Source of the DNA: a virus
Taxonomy: Duplodnaviria; Caudoviricetes
Length of the DNA stretch: 64,000 nt
Strand: one strand, 5' to 3'
Virus record (IMG/VR): IMGVR_UViG_3300037781_000042
Span: 64,001 to 128,000 of that record
Shown here piece after piece: positions 2,293-17,865 of the stretch. The stretch's first letter is position 1, and each line of letters begins with the position of its first letter. Below the pieces are notes generated by a model that worked only from the letters and a program-made list of their open reading frames with translations, was not told the origin of the DNA and did not search any database. The position numbers and the translations under genes are program-made.

Positions 2293-2989
2293 CTAATTTC
2301 CTTTCTAAATTTATTTTATACATATAGTTTAAATCACTTCTAAGCCTTCTAATTCTACTTTTTATTGTATTAATGTTAATATTTTGGTGCCTTGCTATAT
2401 CTTGTTCTTTCATTTTAAAAATAAACTTATCATTGTACAGTTCTTGAAAATCTTCAGGTAAATGTTTTACTATCTCATCTAAAACCTGTTTCTTTAGAAC
2501 AGGAATTTCAATTGTTCCATCAAAATGAGAATGATCTTGAACTACTGTTAATGAATAAAGACTATGTAAATGAGTTGCTCTATCTTTATTAGGAGTAGGA
2601 TCTTTAGAATAAGTACAATAAAAATCTGGAGGATTTTCTTTTATTTCAGAAATAAGTTTGTCTTTTCTAGCTTCTAATATTTTATAAAGTTCATATTGAG
2701 CAATTCTATAAATCCAAGTAGTAAATCTGCGATTAGTATCATACATCTCTATATTTTTATAGACTTTAAAAAAGGTAGAAGCTACTGCATCGTTAACAAT
2801 TTCTATATGAACTAAATAAGAACTATCATATCCTTTAAATTTTTTACTACAATGTTGTTTTAAAGGAATGCTTAAACATTCATAAAGTTGACTATAAAGT
2901 AAATTTGCTTCTTTAGGGTATTTTTCGGAATCTATTTCCTTTAATTTTTTACCCAATTCCTGCAAATTTATTTTATACTTTTTTCTCAT
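2264..2989 (-). CDS. RNA polymerase sigma-70 factor, ECF-like
   Basis: Region-2-like DAVASTFFKVYKNIEMYDTNRRFTTWIYRIA and region-4 HTH LPEDFQELY...KEQDIARHQNININTIKSRIRRLR. Confidence 0.85.
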   Translation of the reverse strand: MRKKYKINLQELGKKLKEIDSEKYPKEANLLYSQLYECLSIPLKQHCSKKFKGYDSSYLVHIEIVNDAVASTFFKVYKNIEMYDTNRRFTTWIYRIAQYELYKILEARKDKLISEIKENPPDFYCTYSKDPTPNKDRATHLHSLYSLTVVQDHSHFDGTIEIPVLKKQVLDEIVKHLPEDFQELYNDKFIFKMKEQDIARHQNININTIKSRIRRLRSDLNYMYKINLERKLVEHENRKTC

Positions 2990-3176
2990 TGTTGTGCTTT
3001 GTTCTTAGAACGTTTGAAGAAAAACCAAATACTGCACATATTACTACAAGATACCAATTTTCTAACATAAAGGAAGAATATGTTTTTTCAGGAGAAGCAA
3101 AAAATAAGTATGCTCCATAGATTGCTACTAGTAATCCTAATGCCATTAGAATATTGCTTAGATGTTTGTAAATCAT
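2973..3176 (-). CDS. Small two-TM membrane protein
   Basis: Two hydrophobic stretches in 67 aa. Confidence 0.6.
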   Translation of the reverse strand: MIYKHLSNILMALGLLVAIYGAYLFFASPEKTYSSFMLENWYLVVICAVFGFSSNVLRTKHNNEKKV

Positions 3177-7004: not shown

Positions 7005-10000
7005 ATGCAAAAGAATTTATATTTCACATCACCAAATCAGCCTCACTTCATAGAAATTAATAATAATTTTTCTGAAAAGAAAGAGTATAGAATTTATTTT
7101 GAAGGAGAGACTTTAAATTTATTTTTATTAGAAGGAGTATCTATAACTAATTATGATACTTTTGATAATGGATATGTGTTAACAGTAGATGAAGGAGAAT
7201 CTAGGTACTTAGAAATTTATCCAAAATGTGGAGATGTTTCTATTGATGCTTATGTAGATTGTATAATAGAATCTGCAGATCAAGATTTTACAGATATTAA
7301 TAGATTGAATTTAGCTTTAAGAAAAGAGAGATTTGGAAAGAATGTTCCTTTATATTCTACATTTGAAAAGAAATTTAAAGAATTTGAAAAAGAAGAATAT
7401 GAAACTTATGCTTTACAAAATATAAATCCTTTACTTTCTGGAAATGTTAAATTAAGAATAGATTCTAAAAATAAATTATATTTTACTTTATTTGATGAAG
7501 TAACAGAATCTAATAACGATAAATTATATTCAAGAGTAGTAAAAAACGGATCTGATTATTTAAATGAACTAACAAAATTCTTTAAAGATTTAGAAAGAAA
7601 GACTGATAGTTTTTATGAAAATATAGTAGTTGAAAATTACAATTCAAGAGACGGAGCATCTTTAAAATCTCAAATTAGAGATGATATTTATTCTGCAGGT
7701 GCATATAATATTCCTTCAGAAACTCATAAAGAAAAATTTGCAATTTTTGCTCCTTTATATCTTGAAAATAAAATACCTTCTAAGTTTGTAATTTTTAAAA
7801 GAGAAAAAGTAAATGATTTAAAAAATTCTGAATTATTTAAAGATTTAACAATTGTAAAAAGTTTTGATTTATCTAAAAATTCAGAGTTAGGAAAGTTTAT
7901 AGATAGAACAAAAGAAACTATAAATTTTGAAAAACCTCACGTAAAAAGTGTAATTAATGATAACTCTGTTCTTTTAGAAATAACAGGAATGGATCCAGAA
8001 GCTTCTTCAATTGCTACAGTATATGAAGATATAACTGATTATGCTTTTAAAGAATCTACTATTTTAGATTTTGAATCTTATGTTACTGATACTTATAAAA
8101 GAAGAAAACTTGTTTCTCATAGAATATTAAATTTAGAATTTTTATTTGATGATGATTTAGAAGAAAACGAAATGTATTCGTATTTTGGAATGTATGTAGA
8201 TGATTTAGACATCTCTAAATACGAATTAGATTTAAATCATTATGGAAAAGATGTTTATAATAAATGTACTTTAGGAATTGGAAGTTCTGTAGATTCATTA
8301 AAAGTTTCTACTCAAATACCAGATATTTCAAAGTATATTAATACTAATGACAGAATATTCTATTTAAAAGATGCTTCAAACAATTTTCATAATTTAAAAT
8401 CTACTTCTGAATATGAATTTAAATTAAAAAATTCTACAAGCATTTGTGACTTTGCTAAAAATGTAGATGAACAGGTTGTTATTAAAGATTCAGATATTAT
8501 TAAAGATGCTAAACCTTATGTAAACGTTTCGTTTGATGATAACATTTATTCAAATACACAGTTAGTAATAACTCAAAATACGAATAAATATGAAATAGAT
8601 TTTATAGAAGATGTAGTAACAGTAGATTATTATGAACATTCTCAAATAGAAAATATTTTTCCTATTACTTTAATAGATGATAATACTATTCAAATAGAAG
8701 AATATGTTTATATTCCTGATTCTGAAATAGTAACTTTAATAGATCCAAGTTCTGAAATTTCAGTAGAATCTTCTTATTCTATTAATAGTGGAAGTTATAC
8801 ACAAATTGTATTTTCAGATGCTATCGATTTAAGTTCAATTACACACATTAAAATAATAGAAAAACCTAAACTGAAAGCAGAAGTTACTTTAGGTGTTAAT
8901 TTAGAAGAAACATTAGCTAAATTAGTAGAAAAAGTTTCTTTATTAGATAATTTTCCATTTGAAATAGTTCAAGAAGCAAATGAAATTTTTATATGTTCTA
9001 CTAATAGTTTAAAGTTTAATGTTACTTTAGATACTACTAATTCTTCTACTGATTTATCTAAGATAAAAAGATTCAGTAATGATTTAACGTTAACCGCTTC
9101 TACTGTAGGAGGAGTAACAGTAACTTCTAATGTATCATCTTTTAATTCTGTAAATCTAACAAATGATTATCTTTATCCTATAGATAGTTATTACTCAGAA
9201 TATTTTAATGAAGGAGATTATTTATATGACATTGGTTCAGTTCATTCAGAATCTTTACCAATTGATGAAACTTCTTATACGATAAGATATATGAATGGGT
9301 TAGAAGTAATAAAACTTCCTAAAGAAAAAACTATTAAAAAGATTTATAAACCAAGTTCTTTATGTTTAGGACTTTTTAGTTTTTATGATGTTAGAAGATT
9401 TGATACTCAAATGGTAACAAATGATTTTAATTTCATTAAAGCTGAATATCAGAAACTTTATAAGAAATTTGCTCCTTCTGAAAAATTAGTTCCTAGAATG
9501 ATTTATAAATTGAAAAATGTAGGGAGTATTCCTATTACGGTTTCAGTTAGATATGGAATAGAAGATTCTTGGAAACATACAGAAGTAACTAGATTAACTG
9601 TAGGAGCAAATTCTACTAGACAGTTTTCTACCTTTCTTTCGGATTATAGTTTAACCGAATATAATGAAGATATTGAGTTTAGATATTTTTTAGTAGATGA
9701 TAATGAATTAAGTGGAAACATCTATGCTTATAATTTAAATCTATTTGAAGATCCTGATTTATTAAACTTTGATCCTGAATTTCCAAATACTTCTTATGAT
9801 AGTAAAAAGAAACAAAACGAAATAGATATTCAAAAACAAAATGAAAATCCTGATTTCGTTTACTATCAAGATGCTAGAAGTGAATATTTTAGATTAGAAG
9901 AATATTCAAACGTAGATTCTACAATAGAAGATATTATATCAAATAGAAATGTAAAATGGACAGATTATAAATTCAAAGATTCTAAAGCTCAACCTCATAG

Positions 10001-12758
10001 ATTAAACTTTAGTCCTGCTTTAGGAAAAACCGGATACATGTCTACATTTACAAATTTTGAAAGTTTACCAGAACTTCATCCTCATGAATGGTTTATGATG
10101 GAAGAATTTCCAAGTCACTTATCAGTTTACGAAGGATCAGAAGGAAATTATTTATTTTCAAGAGTTTCTAAGAGTTTACTTTTAGATACTAACTATGACT
10201 ATTTTACAGAATATTTTTCAAATGGTCATTTAGGAGTAGATGAAATAAGTGGAAAAGATTTAAAAATTTCTAGAAAAGATAATTATGGAATTTTTTATAG
10301 ATCTTCTTTAGATGAATATGAAGTTCCTTATAAAGGGGTAAAATATAGATTTAAGTCTGAAACTGATTTAAGTGGATATAAATTTGCAATTGTTCATAGT
10401 ACACGTCCTGATTTAGAATCTAATACACAATCTATAATTGATCATTGTGAGGTACCGGATGTTGGATATGATTGTAAAGATTTAGGAATTTTACCTAAAT
10501 TACAGTATGCAATTGATGATTTAGTATTAGGAGATCAAACTGTAAATATTTCAGTTTCTGTTATAAATTCTGGAACTTCTGTTACTATTCCAGAATTAAC
10601 AAGTACTACAGTAGAAAATTCTGGTTCTTTATTTACTTTAGGACAATTTGGTACTGAATTATTAAATGCTTTAAATAAATGGAAAGCAGCATTTGAAAAT
10701 ATTTATAATACTTCAAATGGATACGGAGGAAACTTAACTATTGCATTTAGTACAAAAACTGAAAATGGAAATTATCCTGTAGGAGAATTTTATATTACAG
10801 ACGATCAGAAAACTACAAGTAAAATAGGAGACATTAGAATTGGAATGGCTAAAATTCCAGATACGGATGTTGCTAAAACTTTATACATTTCTCAATCTGA
10901 TTTTAATTCAAAATTTGATTATGTTACTCCTTCAATAATCATTAATTCAAATGCTATTTTAAGAAAAAATGATGACGTTGCCCCTGAGGCATTTTCATTA
11001 TCTTATATTATGGCACACGAATTGGGACATGCTTTTGGTTTAGGTCACGTAGACAGAGAAGCTTCTTTAATGAAACCTACAATTCAATTTAGTTATGATT
11101 TAGGAAACATAGAAAATGAAGATGATTGTATTATAAGTATTTATGGAGAACCTTTACCTGTAGAAGATAATAGTGTTGATTTCGATTGTTCTTTAAGTAG
11201 ATTTAGAAAGAAAGATTCTTTTGAATTTATAGTAAATGAAACATTTAAAACAATAACACTTAAAATCTGTGTAGACGTTCCTAATTATATCAATTTAGAT
11301 TCTAAAAAATCTTTTGTAGATATGTATGTTTCTAATTCATTAAAAAGAATAGCTTCTTATGACGGTGTTCATACTTTAGAAGGATTAGATTTAAGTATTC
11401 CAATTATAGATCTTTCTATAAAAAATGTTGTTTTAGAAAATGATAATGTTTATGCTTTTGCTAAACAGCATTTAGATTTATTTACAAATGGAGAAAATTC
11501 AGAATATTCTTCTTATAGAATAAGAGATGTTAAAAATAATGAAAATGATTTTACAATAGACTATTTAGCACTTACATATACAAATGTTAATTATACATTA
11601 AAGAAATCTTTTGATAAAACAGGTTCTGTAAATAAAGCATTATTGACTAGAATTAAAGATGGATACGATAGTTCTTTAAATATGAAAATACCTTTATTGA
11701 CTAAAGAGTATTTTGAAGATTCTTATTTTTATAGAATATTAGGAGGAGATTCTATATCTAAAGCAAACTATAAATTAACTTTAGATTATTTAAGTGCAAT
11801 AAGTGAAGAAATTCCAATTGAAGGTTCTGATATAACTTTTGATTTTGATATTCTTCCACTTAAAAACGTAAGACTTGAAAATATTAAAATACCAGTATTA
11901 AAGAATAAAGAAGATGGACCGCATTTTAAATTAGAAGAAGCACAAGTAAATACTTCATTACTTAGAGCAGAAGGTGAATACGATCCGATGACAGATAAAT
12001 TAACTTATTTTTCTTTAAGAGAAGATTATAATTTATCTACATTATTTCAAATAGATTTTTATAAATTGAATACTAAGTTTTTATGGAACCATTTAAACTT
12101 TGCTAAGCATGAAGAGTTAATTAAAAAGATGGGACCTTCTGATCAATTGAAACAAAATATAAAAGAAAATGAATTTTCAATGTATCAAAAAACTCAGAAG
12201 TTTGCAAATAACTTAAAAACTTTATATTCTTCTGTTTTAGATCAAGATTCATATTCTTATTATTCAAATACAAATGAACAAAAGCTTTCGGGATTCTTTG
12301 ATCCATTATTAAATAGAAACTATTTTAATTCTCAACTTATTAATAGTTCTACAGAAATTGATTTAAATATTCTAAGTAAACACGTAACGTTTAATCAAGT
12401 TAAAGAACAATTAACAGTAAACGTAAACGTTAAAGAAGCGTTAAGAGATGAATTACTTTCTTTAATACTTCCTTATTATGAAAGGATATATCCTCTTTCA
12501 ATAGAAGCAAAAATAGAAGATAGTTTAAAAAGATTAATTTTTAATGACTTAGAGAATCTTTATTCAGTCGATAGTATTAACATATTAAGTAAAGATTCTA
12601 TAGAAACTACTTATGTTAATATTTTTGAAAATGATATGATAAGAGATTCTAATTTTAACGTTGAAGATACAAGTAAGGAAATTATTGAATTAAAAAGACC
12701 TTTAGAAAAAGGAAGAAAACTTAAATTTAATATTAAAATTAGTTTTAAGTATATTTAA
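7005..12758 (+). CDS. Large putative virion/baseplate-associated protein with internal metzincin (zinc metalloprotease) domain
   Basis: 1917 aa; first gene of block with fibre and baseplate genes; HELGHAFGLGH at 11016-11048 followed by Met-turn SLMKP. Confidence 0.6.
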   Translation: MQKNLYFTSPNQPHFIEINNNFSEKKEYRIYFEGETLNLFLLEGVSITNYDTFDNGYVLTVDEGESRYLEIYPKCGDVSIDAYVDCIIESADQDFTDINRLNLALRKERFGKNVPLYSTFEKKFKEFEKEEYETYALQNINPLLSGNVKLRIDSKNKLYFTLFDEVTESNNDKLYSRVVKNGSDYLNELTKFFKDLERKTDSFYENIVVENYNSRDGASLKSQIRDDIYSAGAYNIPSETHKEKFAIFAPLYLENKIPSKFVIFKREKVNDLKNSELFKDLTIVKSFDLSKNSELGKFIDRTKETINFEKPHVKSVINDNSVLLEITGMDPEASSIATVYEDITDYAFKESTILDFESYVTDTYKRRKLVSHRILNLEFLFDDDLEENEMYSYFGMYVDDLDISKYELDLNHYGKDVYNKCTLGIGSSVDSLKVSTQIPDISKYINTNDRIFYLKDASNNFHNLKSTSEYEFKLKNSTSICDFAKNVDEQVVIKDSDIIKDAKPYVNVSFDDNIYSNTQLVITQNTNKYEIDFIEDVVTVDYYEHSQIENIFPITLIDDNTIQIEEYVYIPDSEIVTLIDPSSEISVESSYSINSGSYTQIVFSDAIDLSSITHIKIIEKPKLKAEVTLGVNLEETLAKLVEKVSLLDNFPFEIVQEANEIFICSTNSLKFNVTLDTTNSSTDLSKIKRFSNDLTLTASTVGGVTVTSNVSSFNSVNLTNDYLYPIDSYYSEYFNEGDYLYDIGSVHSESLPIDETSYTIRYMNGLEVIKLPKEKTIKKIYKPSSLCLGLFSFYDVRRFDTQMVTNDFNFIKAEYQKLYKKFAPSEKLVPRMIYKLKNVGSIPITVSVRYGIEDSWKHTEVTRLTVGANSTRQFSTFLSDYSLTEYNEDIEFRYFLVDDNELSGNIYAYNLNLFEDPDLLNFDPEFPNTSYDSKKKQNEIDIQKQNENPDFVYYQDARSEYFRLEEYSNVDSTIEDIISNRNVKWTDYKFKDSKAQPHRLNFSPALGKTGYMSTFTNFESLPELHPHEWFMMEEFPSHLSVYEGSEGNYLFSRVSKSLLLDTNYDYFTEYFSNGHLGVDEISGKDLKISRKDNYGIFYRSSLDEYEVPYKGVKYRFKSETDLSGYKFAIVHSTRPDLESNTQSIIDHCEVPDVGYDCKDLGILPKLQYAIDDLVLGDQTVNISVSVINSGTSVTIPELTSTTVENSGSLFTLGQFGTELLNALNKWKAAFENIYNTSNGYGGNLTIAFSTKTENGNYPVGEFYITDDQKTTSKIGDIRIGMAKIPDTDVAKTLYISQSDFNSKFDYVTPSIIINSNAILRKNDDVAPEAFSLSYIMAHELGHAFGLGHVDREASLMKPTIQFSYDLGNIENEDDCIISIYGEPLPVEDNSVDFDCSLSRFRKKDSFEFIVNETFKTITLKICVDVPNYINLDSKKSFVDMYVSNSLKRIASYDGVHTLEGLDLSIPIIDLSIKNVVLENDNVYAFAKQHLDLFTNGENSEYSSYRIRDVKNNENDFTIDYLALTYTNVNYTLKKSFDKTGSVNKALLTRIKDGYDSSLNMKIPLLTKEYFEDSYFYRILGGDSISKANYKLTLDYLSAISEEIPIEGSDITFDFDILPLKNVRLENIKIPVLKNKEDGPHFKLEEAQVNTSLLRAEGEYDPMTDKLTYFSLREDYNLSTLFQIDFYKLNTKFLWNHLNFAKHEELIKKMGPSDQLKQNIKENEFSMYQKTQKFANNLKTLYSSVLDQDSYSYYSNTNEQKLSGFFDPLLNRNYFNSQLINSSTEIDLNILSKHVTFNQVKEQLTVNVNVKEALRDELLSLILPYYERIYPLSIEAKIEDSLKRLIFNDLENLYSVDSINILSKDSIETTYVNIFENDMIRDSNFNVEDTSKEIIELKRPLEKGRKLKFNIKISFKYI
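12511..12758 (+). repeat. Direct repeat copy A (3' end of 1917-aa gene)
   Basis: 248 bp homologous to 14158-14402; two near-identical blocks around a diverged ~45-bp core. Confidence 0.95.
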
Positions 12759-12900
12759 TAAATTTACACTTTCATTAATAGATACTCCGTTTTCAGAAAC
12801 AAGGGTATTTTCAAAAAGTTGTTCTAATTTAATTTGTAATTTTGTCATCTTTTTAATCGTTTTTTATAAACTATATATTTCTGCAAAATATATATAGAGT

Positions 12901-14124
12901 ATGAAGCAGAATAAAGCATATAAATTAAGGATATATCCAAACAAAGAACAAAAAGTTTTACTTGATAAGACTTTTGGTTGCGTGAGGTTTGTTTACAATA
13001 ATGCTTTAGCCTATAAAGAAGAACTTTATGCACATTCTAAACAAAGGTACACTAAGTATGATTCAATAAATGATTTAACTAAAATCAAGAAAATTGAAGA
13101 ATACTCTTGGTTAAAGGAAGTTGATTCAGTTGCTCTTCAGCAGTCACTTATAGATATGGATAGAGCATACCAGAATTTCTTTAAAAATAAAAGAGGATTT
13201 CCAAAATTTAAATCTAAACATGGAAAAAATATTTATAGAACCAATAATATTAGAGGAGCAATTCATACTAAAGGTTCTAAGATAAAGTTACCTAAATTAG
13301 GTTACATTAAATTCAGGGACCCTAGAACCATTGAGGGAAAGATTAAATATGTAACGGTATCTAGGACTCCAACTGGAAAGTATTTTGCTTCAGTTTTGGT
13401 TGAATATGATTTTACGTCTCAGCCAAAAAATAAAATAAACATCTCAAATATTTTTGCTGCCGACATGTCTTGTAAAGACATGATGGTGAGTGAAGAAATG
13501 GAATTTGAAAACCAAAAATTCTATAGAAAAGTACAAAATAAACTAAAAAGGAAACAAAGAAATCTAGCAAGGAAAAAGAAAGGTTCAAACAACAGAAACA
13601 AAGCAAAATTGAAGATTGCAAGATTACATGAAAAGATAAAGAATCAGAGGAAAGAATATCAAAGAAACCTTGCTAACATGTTAGTTTCTAAATTTGATGT
13701 CTTTGTATTTGAAGATTTAAACGTTGAAGGAATAAAGAAATTTAATTCCGGTATTTCTAAAACAATTGCTTCTGATTTTAGTTGGTCAAAATTCCTTTCT
13801 TTTCTTGAATGGAAATGTTTTAAAGAAAACAAGCATTTTATAAAAATAGATAGATTTTTCCCTTCAAGCAAGTTATGTAACGAATGCGGAACTATTAAAG
13901 AAGATTTGTCTTTAAAGGATAGAACGTATACATGTGATTGCGGACACACAATTAATAGAGACATTAATGCTGCTCGTAATATAAAGCGAGAAGGCGTTGG
14001 TGAACTAGTAAAACAAGGAATAAACCTTGTATATAAAAATTCTACTGTCGGCTGGACAGAAAGTTACGCTTGTGGAGATATGACTGAGGTTACAAGGTCA
14101 GCCCAAGAAGTTTCTTATAGTTAA
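12901..14124 (+). CDS. tnpB: RNA-guided endonuclease TnpB (IS200/IS605 family, no TnpA nearby)
   Basis: N-terminal KAYKLRIYPNKEQ...FGCVRFVYN; RuvC acidic residues in FAADMS, VFEDLNV and RDINAARNI; zinc finger CNECG...CDCG. Confidence 0.95.
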   Translation: MKQNKAYKLRIYPNKEQKVLLDKTFGCVRFVYNNALAYKEELYAHSKQRYTKYDSINDLTKIKKIEEYSWLKEVDSVALQQSLIDMDRAYQNFFKNKRGFPKFKSKHGKNIYRTNNIRGAIHTKGSKIKLPKLGYIKFRDPRTIEGKIKYVTVSRTPTGKYFASVLVEYDFTSQPKNKINISNIFAADMSCKDMMVSEEMEFENQKFYRKVQNKLKRKQRNLARKKKGSNNRNKAKLKIARLHEKIKNQRKEYQRNLANMLVSKFDVFVFEDLNVEGIKKFNSGISKTIASDFSWSKFLSFLEWKCFKENKHFIKIDRFFPSSKLCNECGTIKEDLSLKDRTYTCDCGHTINRDINAARNIKREGVGELVKQGINLVYKNSTVGWTESYACGDMTEVTRSAQEVSYS

Positions 14125-14144
14125 AATAAGAAATACAGTATAAC
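14041..14144 (+). ncRNA. TnpB omegaRNA/reRNA scaffold 3' part and IS right end
   Basis: ACTGTCGG..ACAGAAAGTTACGCTTGTGGAGA..TGAC..GTCA..CAAGAAG, hairpin TTTCTTAT-AGTTAAA-ATAAGAAA, ending AGTATAAC; typical tnpB 3' overlap architecture. Confidence 0.7.
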
Positions 14145-14402
14145 TTAGATGATGTGGAAATAGAAGATAGTTTAAAAAGATTAATTTTCAATGACTTAGA
14201 GAAGCTTTATTCAATTGATAGCATTAACATATTAAGTAAAGATTCTACATCAACAGAGTACACTGAAAGTGATTTAGACTTAATTATAGACTCTAATTTT
14301 AACGTTGAAGATACAAGCAAAGAAATTATTGAATTAAAAAGACCTTTAGAAAAAGGAAGAAAACTTAAATTTAATATTAAAATTAGTTTTAAGTACATTT
14401 AA
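14145..14402 (+). pseudogene. Displaced 3' fragment (copy B) of the 1917-aa gene
   Basis: In-frame LDDVEIEDSLKRLIFNDLEKLYSID...KFNIKISFKYI*, allelic to the C-terminus of 7005..12758. Confidence 0.85.
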
Positions 14403-14418
14403 AAAATAAGAAATAAAA

Positions 14419-17400
14419 ATGGCATTAAATTTAAACGAAATAAAAGTAACCGAATCTACTCAAGTATTGGTAGATAAGTTAAATGAAAATTTTCAATTAA
14501 TAGCAAATTCTAATGGAGGACCTGAAGGAAAATCAGGAAATCCTGGAGGTGCTGGATTACCAGGTCCTAGAGGCCCTGTAGGTTTAACAGGTCCGACGGG
14601 TCAAAGAGGATCTAAATGGTGGAACATAGCAAATACTGCTTTACTTCCAAATGCAGCAATTGTAGGAGACTATGCTGTAATATCTACTAACGGAGATTTT
14701 TATGAGCTTAAAAATGATGGGTGGATAAAGCAAGGAACTTTTAATTTTTCTCAAGGATTAACATTTGATTTAGAAGACATAAGTTATACTTCAGCAGATG
14801 GAGAAGCAGAAACAAGTTTAAAAACTTTAATTAATGCTAAGACAAATAATACTTTATTACTTACAAATATAGATAAACCTGATTCTTCATTAGGACTTCA
14901 AATTCCTACACACGATAGTCCAGGAGATTCGTATCCTTTTATTCAAGGAAGTGATTCTCTTTATAAAGATTTATATGACTATAAATTAAAAATTTACAAC
15001 TCAGGTAATTCAGAAGATGATACTACCCAAATGTATGGTCGTCATATTCATTTAGGAAATTCTTTTGCAATGACTCAAAAATCTGGATGGTTAACAAATT
15101 CAGGATTTACTATAGGAGTTGATTTACATATAGATGACATAAATGATACAGGAGAAGGAAGAGAAATTTTATCTATTGAAGGTAGAACATCAGGAAATCC
15201 AGAGCATTTACATAGACTTCAAATTGAAAATGCTGATTTTTGGGTAAATACTTTTAGAATAGGAAAGAACGGAACTACTTCTGTAGGTTTTGCAGATGAT
15301 TATACACCAACACAAAAATTAGAAATAAACGGTGGAATTAGAATAGGAGATACTTCTATTGAAACAGACGGTTCTATTCGATTTAAAGATGGAGAATTTC
15401 AAGGTTTTGATGGAACAGAATGGGTAGATCTTTCAATTACTGCACAAGAAGTAGTTGATTTAATTAAAACAAATCAAGCATCATTTAATGATAAAGTAAT
15501 AGATACTTCAGGAGATGGAGGAGTTATATTTGGCGACATGTCTTCTGTTGGAACATTAAAAGCAGGAGCTGTTAGATATAATTCAGGCACAGGAGATTTT
15601 GAAGGTTACAATGGAACTTCTTGGGTTGTTTTAAATAATAAAGTAAGTTTAGGAAGTACTGGTGGTCCAGGAGAACCTGGTGGTCCAGGCGGAACAGGAA
15701 ATTTTGTAGACGAAAACGGAGATCCAATAAATTCTAAGATTGCTGTAAATACTAATGATCCTTTAAATGCAGGAAATCCTATTTATGAAGGATTAGTATT
15801 AACATCAGAAGACGGATCAGTTACTTTAAATCAAAGTGTATTAGAATCTAAATATTCAGTAGTTGATTTATCATCTAATGGAATATTTGGTGCAGTAGAT
15901 TCAGAAGGAAATCCTATTTCAGTAAAAGGATTTGATATTAATTCAGATGACATTCAAGTAGATAAAAACATTTCTGATGGAAAAATAAACTATCAACTTA
16001 AATTATCTGATTCATCTAAATTTAAAGATGCTGTAAATGGTGCATTTGATCTTAGATCTTCTGATGGAACTGTTATTGCAAATCCACCTTCAGATGAAAA
16101 AACATATTGGGATTTAAAAGTTTCCCCTGGAGCAGGCTTACAAGAAACTCAACCTGCAGCAGCTAGATATACTGGTGATACTGCTACTCCCGATTTAGAA
16201 TATTCAGCTGCTTATGGTGGACATTATTCTTATCTTTCATTTGAAACAAAAGATTTTGATGCAAATTGTAATATTACTTCTAAAGATCCTTTAACTATAG
16301 AAGTAGAAAAAGGACAAAATGGATATTATAGCGTTTCAGCGAGAGTAAGATTTACTATTGATACTTATCCTGGCGGAACTTTGGCATCGGTAAAACTTTG
16401 TGTATTTAAAGATAATGAAGTTATCTCTGTTTTAAATTCTGTAACGACTGGAGATTCTTATGACATTACACATAATAATTCTAAAGAATACGAATTACAA
16501 GGAACCGATTTAGTTGATTTTGCTTGTGATACGCAAGATTGTTCAAACAGTTTTAAAATTGGTGTTGTAGTTGATTTTGGAACTTCTTCTGGGACAGGAA
16601 GCCTTTCAATGGGAGATTCTTCGGTAGCTATTCATAGAATAACATCAGTTACTCAAGATTCTGTAGATGCTTATTTGTTATCATCTAATACAGCATTTAC
16701 TGAAGTTACTTTACATGACGTTTCAAATGTAGAAACAGCAAATCTAGTATCTGTTGTAAATGATGGACATTTAAAACTTGCGTTACCTCAATACATTACG
16801 TATGAAATTTTAGATGATACTTATTTAAAGATAGATGCAAATATAACAGCTTTACAAGCAGCACTAGATCCTAATTCTACAATTTTAACAAATTCTTATT
16901 CTACTATTAGAGTAGATACTTCATTTACTCATAATTCTGATAATGATAGTGAATTAGAATTTATTTCTGGAGATAATGTTAGTTTAAGTTTAACTGATAA
17001 TCAATTAACTATAAACTCTACGGCTCCTAAACCTACAGTACAAAGCGATGGAGCAAATGTTGCTTCTACTTACGACAATATAGATTTTAGTTCAGAATTT
17101 TCAGTTACTGAAGCAGGTGGTAAAGTTTCTGTTTCAATGAATACGAGTAATTCTGGAGGAAAACATAATGTTATTCATTTAAGTACAAATTATTATGGAT
17201 ATTTAAGTACTATTCAATCAGGAACAAATGAAGATATTCAAGCAGGTATTTTAAACTATAATACGTTTTCAAATGCTGCGGCTGCTGGAATTAGATATAG
17301 ATCAGTAGGAGAAGAAATTTTAGATTCTGATTTAGGCGCAATTTCTCATGGAGATTTAACTGGTGGTATTGTATTAGTACCAGAAGAAACTGCTAAATAT

Positions 17401-17865
17401 TCAATATCTACAAACGTTGGAATTGATTTTGTAATGTTTAATGAAGCATTTAGTCCGGTTGTAAATTATACAACAAATGATTTAGGTCACGCTGGAATTG
17501 GTTTATTTAAATTAAGTGGAGGCGGATCATATACAATCAAAACTGGTTTAGGAACTGCATCTGCTTCATTAGTAAAAATGTTAGGATCTGCAAGTACTCC
17601 TATAGATATAATGAGAACTTGGAATAAAAACGGTTCTCCTGATAGAGTAAGTCTTGCAACATGTACTAGAATAGGAGGAACAACTATTTTAGAATTAACA
17701 GAAGATGAAAAATACGTCTTTGGTGTTGTTACTGGACCTGCTCGAACTTATATAGATGTTTATCGTAGAAAATCAAACGAGTTAACCGTTCAGTCTTTAG
17801 GACAAATGGACGATTTTAAAGCTCTATTATATGATGCTGATATTTCAGTTGAAAAAATTCTATAA
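14419..17865 (+). CDS. Tail-fibre/receptor-binding-like structural protein with collagen-like repeats
   Basis: N-terminal LVDKLNENFQLI; Gly-X-Y run GPEGKSGNPGGAGLPGPRGPVGLTGPTGQRG; internal repeat G.IRF..G.FQG(F/Y)DGT.WV.L twice; beta-rich C-terminus. Confidence 0.7.
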   Translation: MALNLNEIKVTESTQVLVDKLNENFQLIANSNGGPEGKSGNPGGAGLPGPRGPVGLTGPTGQRGSKWWNIANTALLPNAAIVGDYAVISTNGDFYELKNDGWIKQGTFNFSQGLTFDLEDISYTSADGEAETSLKTLINAKTNNTLLLTNIDKPDSSLGLQIPTHDSPGDSYPFIQGSDSLYKDLYDYKLKIYNSGNSEDDTTQMYGRHIHLGNSFAMTQKSGWLTNSGFTIGVDLHIDDINDTGEGREILSIEGRTSGNPEHLHRLQIENADFWVNTFRIGKNGTTSVGFADDYTPTQKLEINGGIRIGDTSIETDGSIRFKDGEFQGFDGTEWVDLSITAQEVVDLIKTNQASFNDKVIDTSGDGGVIFGDMSSVGTLKAGAVRYNSGTGDFEGYNGTSWVVLNNKVSLGSTGGPGEPGGPGGTGNFVDENGDPINSKIAVNTNDPLNAGNPIYEGLVLTSEDGSVTLNQSVLESKYSVVDLSSNGIFGAVDSEGNPISVKGFDINSDDIQVDKNISDGKINYQLKLSDSSKFKDAVNGAFDLRSSDGTVIANPPSDEKTYWDLKVSPGAGLQETQPAAARYTGDTATPDLEYSAAYGGHYSYLSFETKDFDANCNITSKDPLTIEVEKGQNGYYSVSARVRFTIDTYPGGTLASVKLCVFKDNEVISVLNSVTTGDSYDITHNNSKEYELQGTDLVDFACDTQDCSNSFKIGVVVDFGTSSGTGSLSMGDSSVAIHRITSVTQDSVDAYLLSSNTAFTEVTLHDVSNVETANLVSVVNDGHLKLALPQYITYEILDDTYLKIDANITALQAALDPNSTILTNSYSTIRVDTSFTHNSDNDSELEFISGDNVSLSLTDNQLTINSTAPKPTVQSDGANVASTYDNIDFSSEFSVTEAGGKVSVSMNTSNSGGKHNVIHLSTNYYGYLSTIQSGTNEDIQAGILNYNTFSNAAAAGIRYRSVGEEILDSDLGAISHGDLTGGIVLVPEETAKYSISTNVGIDFVMFNEAFSPVVNYTTNDLGHAGIGLFKLSGGGSYTIKTGLGTASASLVKMLGSASTPIDIMRTWNKNGSPDRVSLATCTRIGGTTILELTEDEKYVFGVVTGPARTYIDVYRRKSNELTVQSLGQMDDFKALLYDADISVEKIL

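Follow-up and report, generated by a model that had tools for sequence, protein, structure and literature searches.

How does a tnpB gene come to lie behind a large phage gene whose reading frame is whole, and yet be followed by a second copy of that gene's end? The question is raised by a locus on bases 64001-128000 of a 211.6-kb IMG/VR viral contig (IMGVR_UViG_3300037781_000042; estimated 82% complete), a stretch of 64,000 nucleotides (nt) that we call the window and that is present in at least 16 metagenome runs, pond and aquatic. The carrier is a jumbo phage, T4-like and with a gp23-type capsid, of pond metagenomes. Here, a tnpB gene of the IS200/IS605 family of insertion sequences (IS) is preceded by copy A, the end of a 1917-amino-acid gene, and followed by copy B, a second version of that end. 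An earlier, sequence-only reading took this arrangement for a candidate RNA-guided homing element. The features on which the argument turns are as follows.

7005..12758, plus strand: the 1917-amino-acid gene, with a Peptidase_M10 domain at residues 1217-1374; its final 88 codons and stop (12492-12758) are copy A
12489..14138, no strand assigned: the inserted block of 1650 bp, copy A and tnpB, missing from the relative L004
12492..12510, plus strand: 19 nt specific to copy A (encoding PLSIEAK), replacing 16 nt of copy B and L004, AACTTAGATGATGTGG (NLDDV), with unrelated sequence
12901..14124, plus strand: tnpB, 407 amino acids, RuvC residues D188, E271 and D354 intact
14142..14402, plus strand: copy B, the displaced resident 3' end; 86 codons and a stop, in frame, no internal stops
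14419..17865, plus strand: the next gene, 1148 amino acids, with weak tail-fibre PHROG matches; in L004 it lies directly behind the large gene

The inserted block and the displaced gene end

The history of the locus can be read from an allele that does not carry the element. Word-index searches picked out two runs, X15 and X16, that are rich in the upstream gene and poor in the tnpB stretch (shares of 0.46 versus 0.06-0.07). Laid on the window, a 16,124-nt contig from X16 (L004, depth 44.9) joins position 12488 to position 14139, skipping 1650 nt; the trinucleotide TAT is common to both sides of the joint, and the block may equally be written 12492-14141. L004 is 95-96.5% identical to the window on either side of the junction and, with the block removed, its divergence runs evenly at ~4% across it. 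Its large gene, of 1915 amino acids, is followed at once by the 1148-amino-acid gene and has a 3' end of the copy-B type in both variable blocks; copy B differs from this working allele by seven synonymous and three non-synonymous codons. Because L004 is without exactly 12489-14138 and is of copy-B type at its end, the comparison of the two sequences demonstrates that copy A and tnpB form an inserted block and that copy B is the resident end, displaced downstream. The sequence-only reading had proposed just such a unit of foreign 3' end and tnpB, which inserted, rebuilt the open reading frame (ORF) and displaced the resident end, and L004 bears this out, resembling copy B both at the junction and in the central block. 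The duplication was not found in the relatives L002, L003 and L004. Queries of IMG/VR with the empty junction, the right end and an alternative left junction returned no hits, nor did a query of JGI metagenomes with the central block of copy A.

Could the duplication instead be an artefact of assembly, in which a strain with allele A and a strain with allele B were fused into a chimera? A contig graph at k=31 does leave the path from the upstream gene into A or into B ambiguous, at exact repeats of 30 nt and 74 nt. However, both repeats are shorter than a read, the depths of the pieces agree within a run, and tnpB lies between the two copies on single contigs (12722-13830, 13801-14187 and, as one unbroken contig in run X5, 12722-14395). 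The full order is found in two JGI assemblies; L005 (JGI 3300037602) shares that order and is 99.9% identical over 14.6 kb, while two further JGI samples (L091 and L092) run from tnpB through copy B into the next gene. In Logan contigs from several runs, too, the element is joined on its left to the end of one copy and on its right to the start of the other. With the same order in independent assemblies, we consider a chimera very improbable.

The duplication is thus real, although the displaced copy begins at 14139-14142 rather than at 14158, where it had been placed. It consists of two direct-repeat arms, 12511-12607 against 14158-14254 (92% identity) and 12639-12763 against 14283-14407 (94%), separated by a diverged centre of ~45 nt in which copy A is 3 nt longer. 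Pairwise alignment agrees with the first description on two counts: the central block is fully diverged, and over the last ~110 nt the copies differ at three sites, all of them synonymous (AGT/AGC, AAG/AAA, TAT/TAC). Overall, copies A and B show 11 synonymous and 17 non-synonymous codon differences, and all but two of the latter are confined to the first 6-7 codons and the central block of ~15 codons. At the start of the displaced copy, where copy B and L004 encode NLDDV, L002 has the related NLNDI.

The central block (12540-12640 and 14190-14280 of the window) is hypervariable, with copy A, copy B, L002 and L003 all different. Population observations, made at contig level in runs X5, X7 and X8, add to this picture. 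From 12428 on, X5 has another allele in the first copy, whereas element and copy B (12722-14395) are unchanged and deeper than the flanks; in X7, the 5' blocks and the element match the window and both central blocks are different, between identical flanks. To judge from these alignments, the central block is a recombination hot spot, and pieces of the locus move by illegitimate events.

Two smaller matters concern the same stretch. That copy B might be a small paralogous gene was considered and rejected: at 16% identity, the 86-amino-acid ORF that L002 has there is no relative, and the place is empty in L003 and L004. On the minus strand, an ORF of 48 amino acids (12700-12849, start at 12849) overlaps the end of copy A and was called as a gene in L005 (7210-7356); it is probably spurious.

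TnpB, its omegaRNA and the ends of the element

The nuclease gene itself appears sound. As had been noted from the letters alone, the RuvC triad is intact: D188, E271 and D354 align to D191, E278 and D361 of ISDra2 TnpB (E 7e-72), and among 22 homologues these columns are invariant or nearly so. Pfam matches comprise HTH_OrfB_IS605, OrfB_IS605 and Cas12f1-like_TNB. It is the single tnpB of the whole contig, and the reported lack of tnpA extends beyond the window, with no Y1 transposase (PF01797) found in the 211.6 kb that make up an estimated 82% of the genome. The nearest relative (P0007) is 83% identical, and close relatives at 50-60% identity are IS200/IS605 elements. In L010, a Y1_Tnp gene lies directly 5' of tnpB, and L003 has a decayed, frame-shifted tnpA remnant; because of these two loci, the clade is, on sequence grounds, a true IS200/IS605 family. 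Phage GenBank records gave short tnpB similarities only, and a search of Rfam yielded no known family and no intron fold, with a lone chance match to a miRNA.

The tnpB of L003, a relative whose large protein is 38% identical, is homologous to that of the window and encodes 411 amino acids (L003:7245-8770, including the tnpA remnant). Its neighbours are the gp23-type capsid gene on one side and the 1917-amino-acid gene's orthologue on the other, and its flanks are without duplication.

Where such elements end can be set from identical IS copies in different contexts. The right end of the family is a variable hairpin followed by TAGTTCAA, as seen in L076/L078, in four copies within one Pseudalkalibacillus genome and in L010/L178/L180. 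L010 and L180 hold the same IS in two contexts, and the sequence that they share starts at TTTAT, which also marks the left boundary in other subfamilies; a target-adjacent motif (TAM) of TTTAA, with the stop codon included, or of TTTAC in L010, was ruled out by this comparison. When six close relatives were aligned, a fold with 28 predicted pairs emerged, 13 of them covarying, in which GGAAT at the 5' end of the scaffold is base-paired to the tail. The corresponding parts of the window are listed below. The predicted omegaRNA scaffold extends back into the 3' part of tnpB; of the hairpins at the two ends, the left one is weak and the right one remodelled.

12759..12767, plus strand: spacer TAAATTTAC behind the copy A stop; TTTAC (12763-12767) is a TAM-like motif directly 5' of the left end
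12768..12900, plus strand: decayed left end, no tnpA, with a promoter-like stretch
14017..14138, plus strand: predicted omegaRNA scaffold; covariance model from six relatives, 75.3 bits, E 6e-13; 68.3 bits if cut at 14124
14111..14133, plus strand: perfect 8-bp hairpin TTTCTTAT / ATAAGAAA, arms 14111-14118 and 14126-14133, loop AGTTAAA; TAGTTAA (14118-14124) resembles the family tail
14123..14135, plus strand: AAAATAAGAAATA, 13 nt, identical to 14403-14415, which lie in the spacer that parts copy B from the next gene; no third exact copy in 64 kb
14125..14140, plus strand: candidate guide AATAAGAAATACAGTA, for a right end at 14124
14142..14157, plus strand: candidate guide or protospacer AACTTAGATGATGTGG, for a right end at 14138-14141; TATAT lies 5' of the site in the empty allele

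Upstream of tnpB, 28-35 nt of promoter-like sequence (TTGACA, a gap of 17-19 nt, TATAAA) recur elsewhere in the same phage: window 12868-12895 is a near-exact copy of G000:C1:39536-39563 (L089:1500-1530), a divergent-promoter region. A phage-type promoter, replacing tnpA, may drive tnpB. The motif also accounts for a rejected left end at 12860: the loose contig ends that many runs show at 12860 and 12894 are caused by its 35 nt, which occur at G000:C1:39536 as well.

A passenger element, a homing cassette or a stored gene end

The reading that we favour, and whose chances we put at about even, is that of a canonical, now transposase-less IS riding in a partial duplication made by recombination, with a fossil guide. 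A tnpA-less (IS1341-type) element of tnpB and omegaRNA would have inserted canonically into the short spacer behind a complete foreign copy A, with its left boundary after TTTAC at 12767/12768 and its right end, closing in TATAGTTAA, at 14124; the original insertion site in the donor lineage would have run from the gene stop through TAAATTTAC to the point of insertion, and on through AATAAGAAATA... to the next gene. In the block, copy A would be followed by 9 nt of spacer, then by the IS and last by 14-17 nt from the spacer usually found in front of the next gene; the whole would later have been fused to codon ~1830 of the gene of an IS-less relative, via TAT microhomology 14-17 nt past the right end. 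The route may have been an illegitimate crossover between co-infecting phages; or a partial tandem duplication may have come first, its spare DNA then taking up the IS. Either way, the reading frame is whole because copy A is complete, and copy B would survive as a silent remnant. The guide would be AATAAGAAATACAGTA, a fossil of the donor spacer; since neither the window nor the empty allele offers it a TAM-flanked match, TnpB would not now be driving the block into genomes of the L004 type. In IMG/VR, a guide of this kind (as a 17-mer) met no related target, with 16 unrelated chance hits. TnpB cuts at the distal end of the guide segment, and it is there that the junction is found, a hint that a break made by TnpB may have started the rearrangement.

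Several observations at the two ends accord with this passenger reading. The left boundary is supported by spacing: TTTAC lies 35 nt before ACAAGGGT in the window, much as TTTAT lies 38 nt before ACAAGGGG in L010/L180, both distances being counted to the ACAAGGG motif. At the right end, CAAGAAG is followed by TTTCTTATAG, which is similar to the loop of the L003 hairpin (TTTCTTTTAG), and then by TTAA, which closes at 14124. The closing TATAGTTAA matches both TATAGTTAC of the viral locus L008 and the family tail, which TAGTTAA resembles but for one missing base. When the sequence is cut at 14124, it still matches the covariance model over the full length and keeps three of four tail pairs, although the hairpin is lost. 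The 13 nt from 14123 on, with their exact counterpart in the spacer ahead of the next gene, fit a spacer insertion as well. Finally, left and right flanks, when rejoined, make a spacer resembling that of L002. If correct, the passenger reading would make L004 and the window a dated before-and-after pair for the carriage of an IS605 element between phage genomes by illegitimate recombination, and the position of the junction, at the distal end of the guide segment, a testable hint.

Fragments of the locus also occur out of place. Some contigs of X7 and X8, with depths above those of the phage flanks, cover no more of the window than 12713-13759, which takes in the final 46 nt of the gene, the spacer and 860 nt from the 5' part of tnpB; on both sides they run into unrelated sequence, so that a truncated copy is placed in another genome. 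At the level of contigs, illegitimate transfer shows itself as ongoing in this community.

A second reading, the one first proposed, is of a self-rescuing homing cassette that spreads without TnpA by cleaving and rescuing. We entertain it as a possibility, with clearly less confidence. Here the right end would be the hairpin at 14111-14133 and a tail, TACAGTAT, ending at 14138-14141, and the guide would be the first 16 nt of the displaced allele. TnpB would cut element-free alleles of competing phages inside what would be an important gene of the virion module, between TATAT and AACTTAGATGATGTGG, and the break would be repaired from the donor with the upstream gene and copy B as homology arms; copy A would restore the ORF at the level of DNA and, its protospacer replaced, be immune. 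What speaks for this cassette weighs, for the most part, against a right end at 14124. The perfect hairpin stands exactly where relatives have their terminal hairpin, one base after CAAGAA, with the junction 8 nt on, and the model prefers the alignment through it to 14138 by 7 bits. An end at 14124 is only 15 nt past CAAGAA versus 22-43 nt in relatives, a range into which the cassette's 32 nt after GAA falls. The junction-side stretch of copy B that is missing from copy A measures 16 nt, one guide length; copy A departs from copy B over exactly this protospacer and is then identical for 30 nt, and at those 16 nt NLDDV is common to copy B and L004, with the related peptide in L002. In the empty allele, they are directly preceded by TATAT, one mismatch from the family TAM, TTTAT. 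L004 carries them as AATCTAGATGATGTGG, with changes at protospacer positions 3 and 4, both synonymous and both in the seed, as would be expected of a resistant allele. Also against the passenger reading, no donor form was found, whether an IS between gene and next gene without duplication or a duplication without IS. For the cassette, one may add that the RuvC triad is intact, that X7 keeps the stretch from tnpB to the start of copy B unchanged while the central block differs, and that TnpB-driven spread of IS605 elements between replicons, independent of TnpA, is already an accepted concept (PMC13565253; PMC10055086). Against it, the tail TACAGTAT cannot pair with the 5' GGAAT, a pairing that is kept or covarying in all six relatives, and the 13-nt spacer identity, the TAGTTAA tail and the TTTAC left boundary would all be coincidences. 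Moreover, the self junction (AGTAT) and the target (TATAT) have three TAM-proximal bases in common, which would make for weak discrimination between self and target; in X5, the first copy varies and tnpB and copy B are constant, the opposite of what a cassette carrying copy A should show; and the junction in L008 is without a TAM-like motif. If one right end is accepted, the evidence for the other becomes a chance agreement with odds of roughly 1 in 100 to 1 in 1000, and from sequence alone the tie between 14124 and 14138-14141 stands; the population data of X5, X7 and X8 do not clearly favour either. Were the homing reading true, this would be the first natural RNA-guided nuclease element to invade coding sequence with a resistant replacement of the displaced part. 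To introns and inteins it would add a third solution, and engineered cleave-and-rescue gene drives would have their counterpart in nature; we would also learn by what means TnpB elements with no transposase persist in lytic phages and spread there.

It is also conceivable, if unlikely, that copy B is a stored alternative C-terminus: a silent second copy of a hypervariable gene end, with tnpB a passenger in non-essential spacer. Gene conversion via the conserved flanks of 30 nt and 125 nt would swap the ~45-nt block into the expressed gene, perhaps altering contacts with a partner or receptor. The block varies between samples in both copies, between identical flanks (X5, X7), and L002, L003 and L004 all differ in it; the neighbouring gene has weak tail-fibre matches, and copy B is intact, in frame and mostly synonymous in its differences from the functional L004 allele. 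Set against this, the duplication is absent from those same three relatives, there is a single silent copy with no recombinase or repeat machinery nearby, and no strain was seen with the copy B block in the expressed position.

Parallels among other loci and known systems

The sequence-only reading had suggested that tnpB homologues be searched for the same architecture. When the 800 nt on each side of tnpB were compared for 81 viral loci, against a control in which mismatched pairs gave 3 weak hits in 285, one comparable case came to light, in L008; among 71 bacterial loci, no repeat exceeded 29 nt. In L008, the 3' end of a 170-amino-acid ORF is present twice, as 162-nt stretches of 96% identity (1419-1580 and 2971-3132). 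The first copy completes the ORF, and the second, which begins 1 nt after TATAGTTAC, is itself followed closely by the next gene. As in L010 and L175, the TAG of the tail doubles as the stop codon of tnpB. The left end has TTTAC in front of it, but the upstream duplicated segment, the counterpart of the displaced-copy junction, is preceded by no TAM-like motif. A search for an empty allele returned L008's own contig only. The arrangement of copy, IS and copy therefore recurs at least once more in phages, as far as alignment of these loci can tell, and L008 does not support guide-directed insertion at the junction. Behind the first copy in L008 lies a terminator-like hairpin, perfect over 11 bp, of which the second arm falls outside the duplication. 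A 67-nt flank repeat in L020 (2904-2970 and 4190-4256) was ruled out as a gene-end duplication. What follows directly on the right end there, GTAGTTCAA, is a copy of the hairpin region at the element's own left end, as expected of a tandem insertion at one TAM or of a circle junction.

How does the locus compare with known systems? TnpB and its omegaRNA were reportedly the subject of a study by Karvelis in 2021. Like tnpB-only IS200/IS605 elements (IS1341 type), the locus has the helix-turn-helix, OrfB and zinc-ribbon parts, an intact RuvC triad, an omegaRNA that runs into the 3' part of tnpB, a left end preceded by a TAM-like pentamer, Y1 TnpA in relatives and a guide taken from the DNA past the right end. 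Unlike them, it has no tnpA in the phage contig, its 1650-bp block adds a complete replacement gene end, and the terminal hairpin and tail of the omegaRNA are remodelled, with the guide register at 14125 or 14142; the family makes no target duplication, whereas here a direct duplication of ~260 nt flanks the element. In the papers that we consulted, we found no description of a carried replacement gene end.

Such ends are familiar from integrating elements, including e14 and phage 21 in icd, islands in tRNA genes and SXT in prfC. These too carry a near-identical substitute for the displaced part, with differences that are mostly synonymous. They use tyrosine or serine integrases and att sites, and their displaced fragment is cut at the crossover; the locus has no integrase, and its displaced fragment overlaps the carried one throughout. 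The free-standing homing endonucleases of T-even phages, Seg and Mob, perform intronless homing with co-conversion of flanking markers. Their genes likewise lie in or between conserved phage genes, flanking donor sequence (here, copy A) travels along, and donor immunity would be a difference at the cut site. However, Seg and Mob recognise their targets by protein, whereas recognition here would be RNA-guided, and co-conversion replaces recipient sequence where this locus keeps the recipient gene end as a downstream duplicate. The Mu G and P1 C segments, which yield mosaic tail-fibre ends, and silent-cassette variation of the pilE/pilS conversion type offer adjacent alternative C-terminal segments with conserved flanks and a strain-variable block, as here; in contrast, the locus shows no invertase, no inverted orientation and one silent copy, with tnpB between the copies. 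Like IStrons, which combine a group I intron with TnpB (PMC10690162), and like inteins, the locus places a selfish nuclease element inside a gene whose function is kept, but those systems restore the gene by RNA or protein splicing and this locus by a gene end carried at the level of DNA. Homing by TnpB and omegaRNA has been described (Meers 2023, PMC10055086; reviewed in PMC13565253).

The 1917-amino-acid gene has orthologues in P0002 (60%), P0003 (38%) and P0005, the empty allele. It found no match in a PHROG search, and Peptidase_M10 is the sole domain recognised in it. In L003, its orthologue sits downstream of a prohead protease and the gp23-type capsid gene. The label 'structural' that the gene had been given is plausible, its presumed place in a tail module being next to a tail-fibre-like gene; the label 'essential' is conjecture.

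The nearest cellular tnpB (L094, 52% identity) belongs to a metagenome-assembled genome of an uncultured Tangfeifania sp., of the Bacteroidota, and other cellular relatives, at 40-45%, are mostly from Bacillota; together they give a weak hint of the host range of this IS clade.

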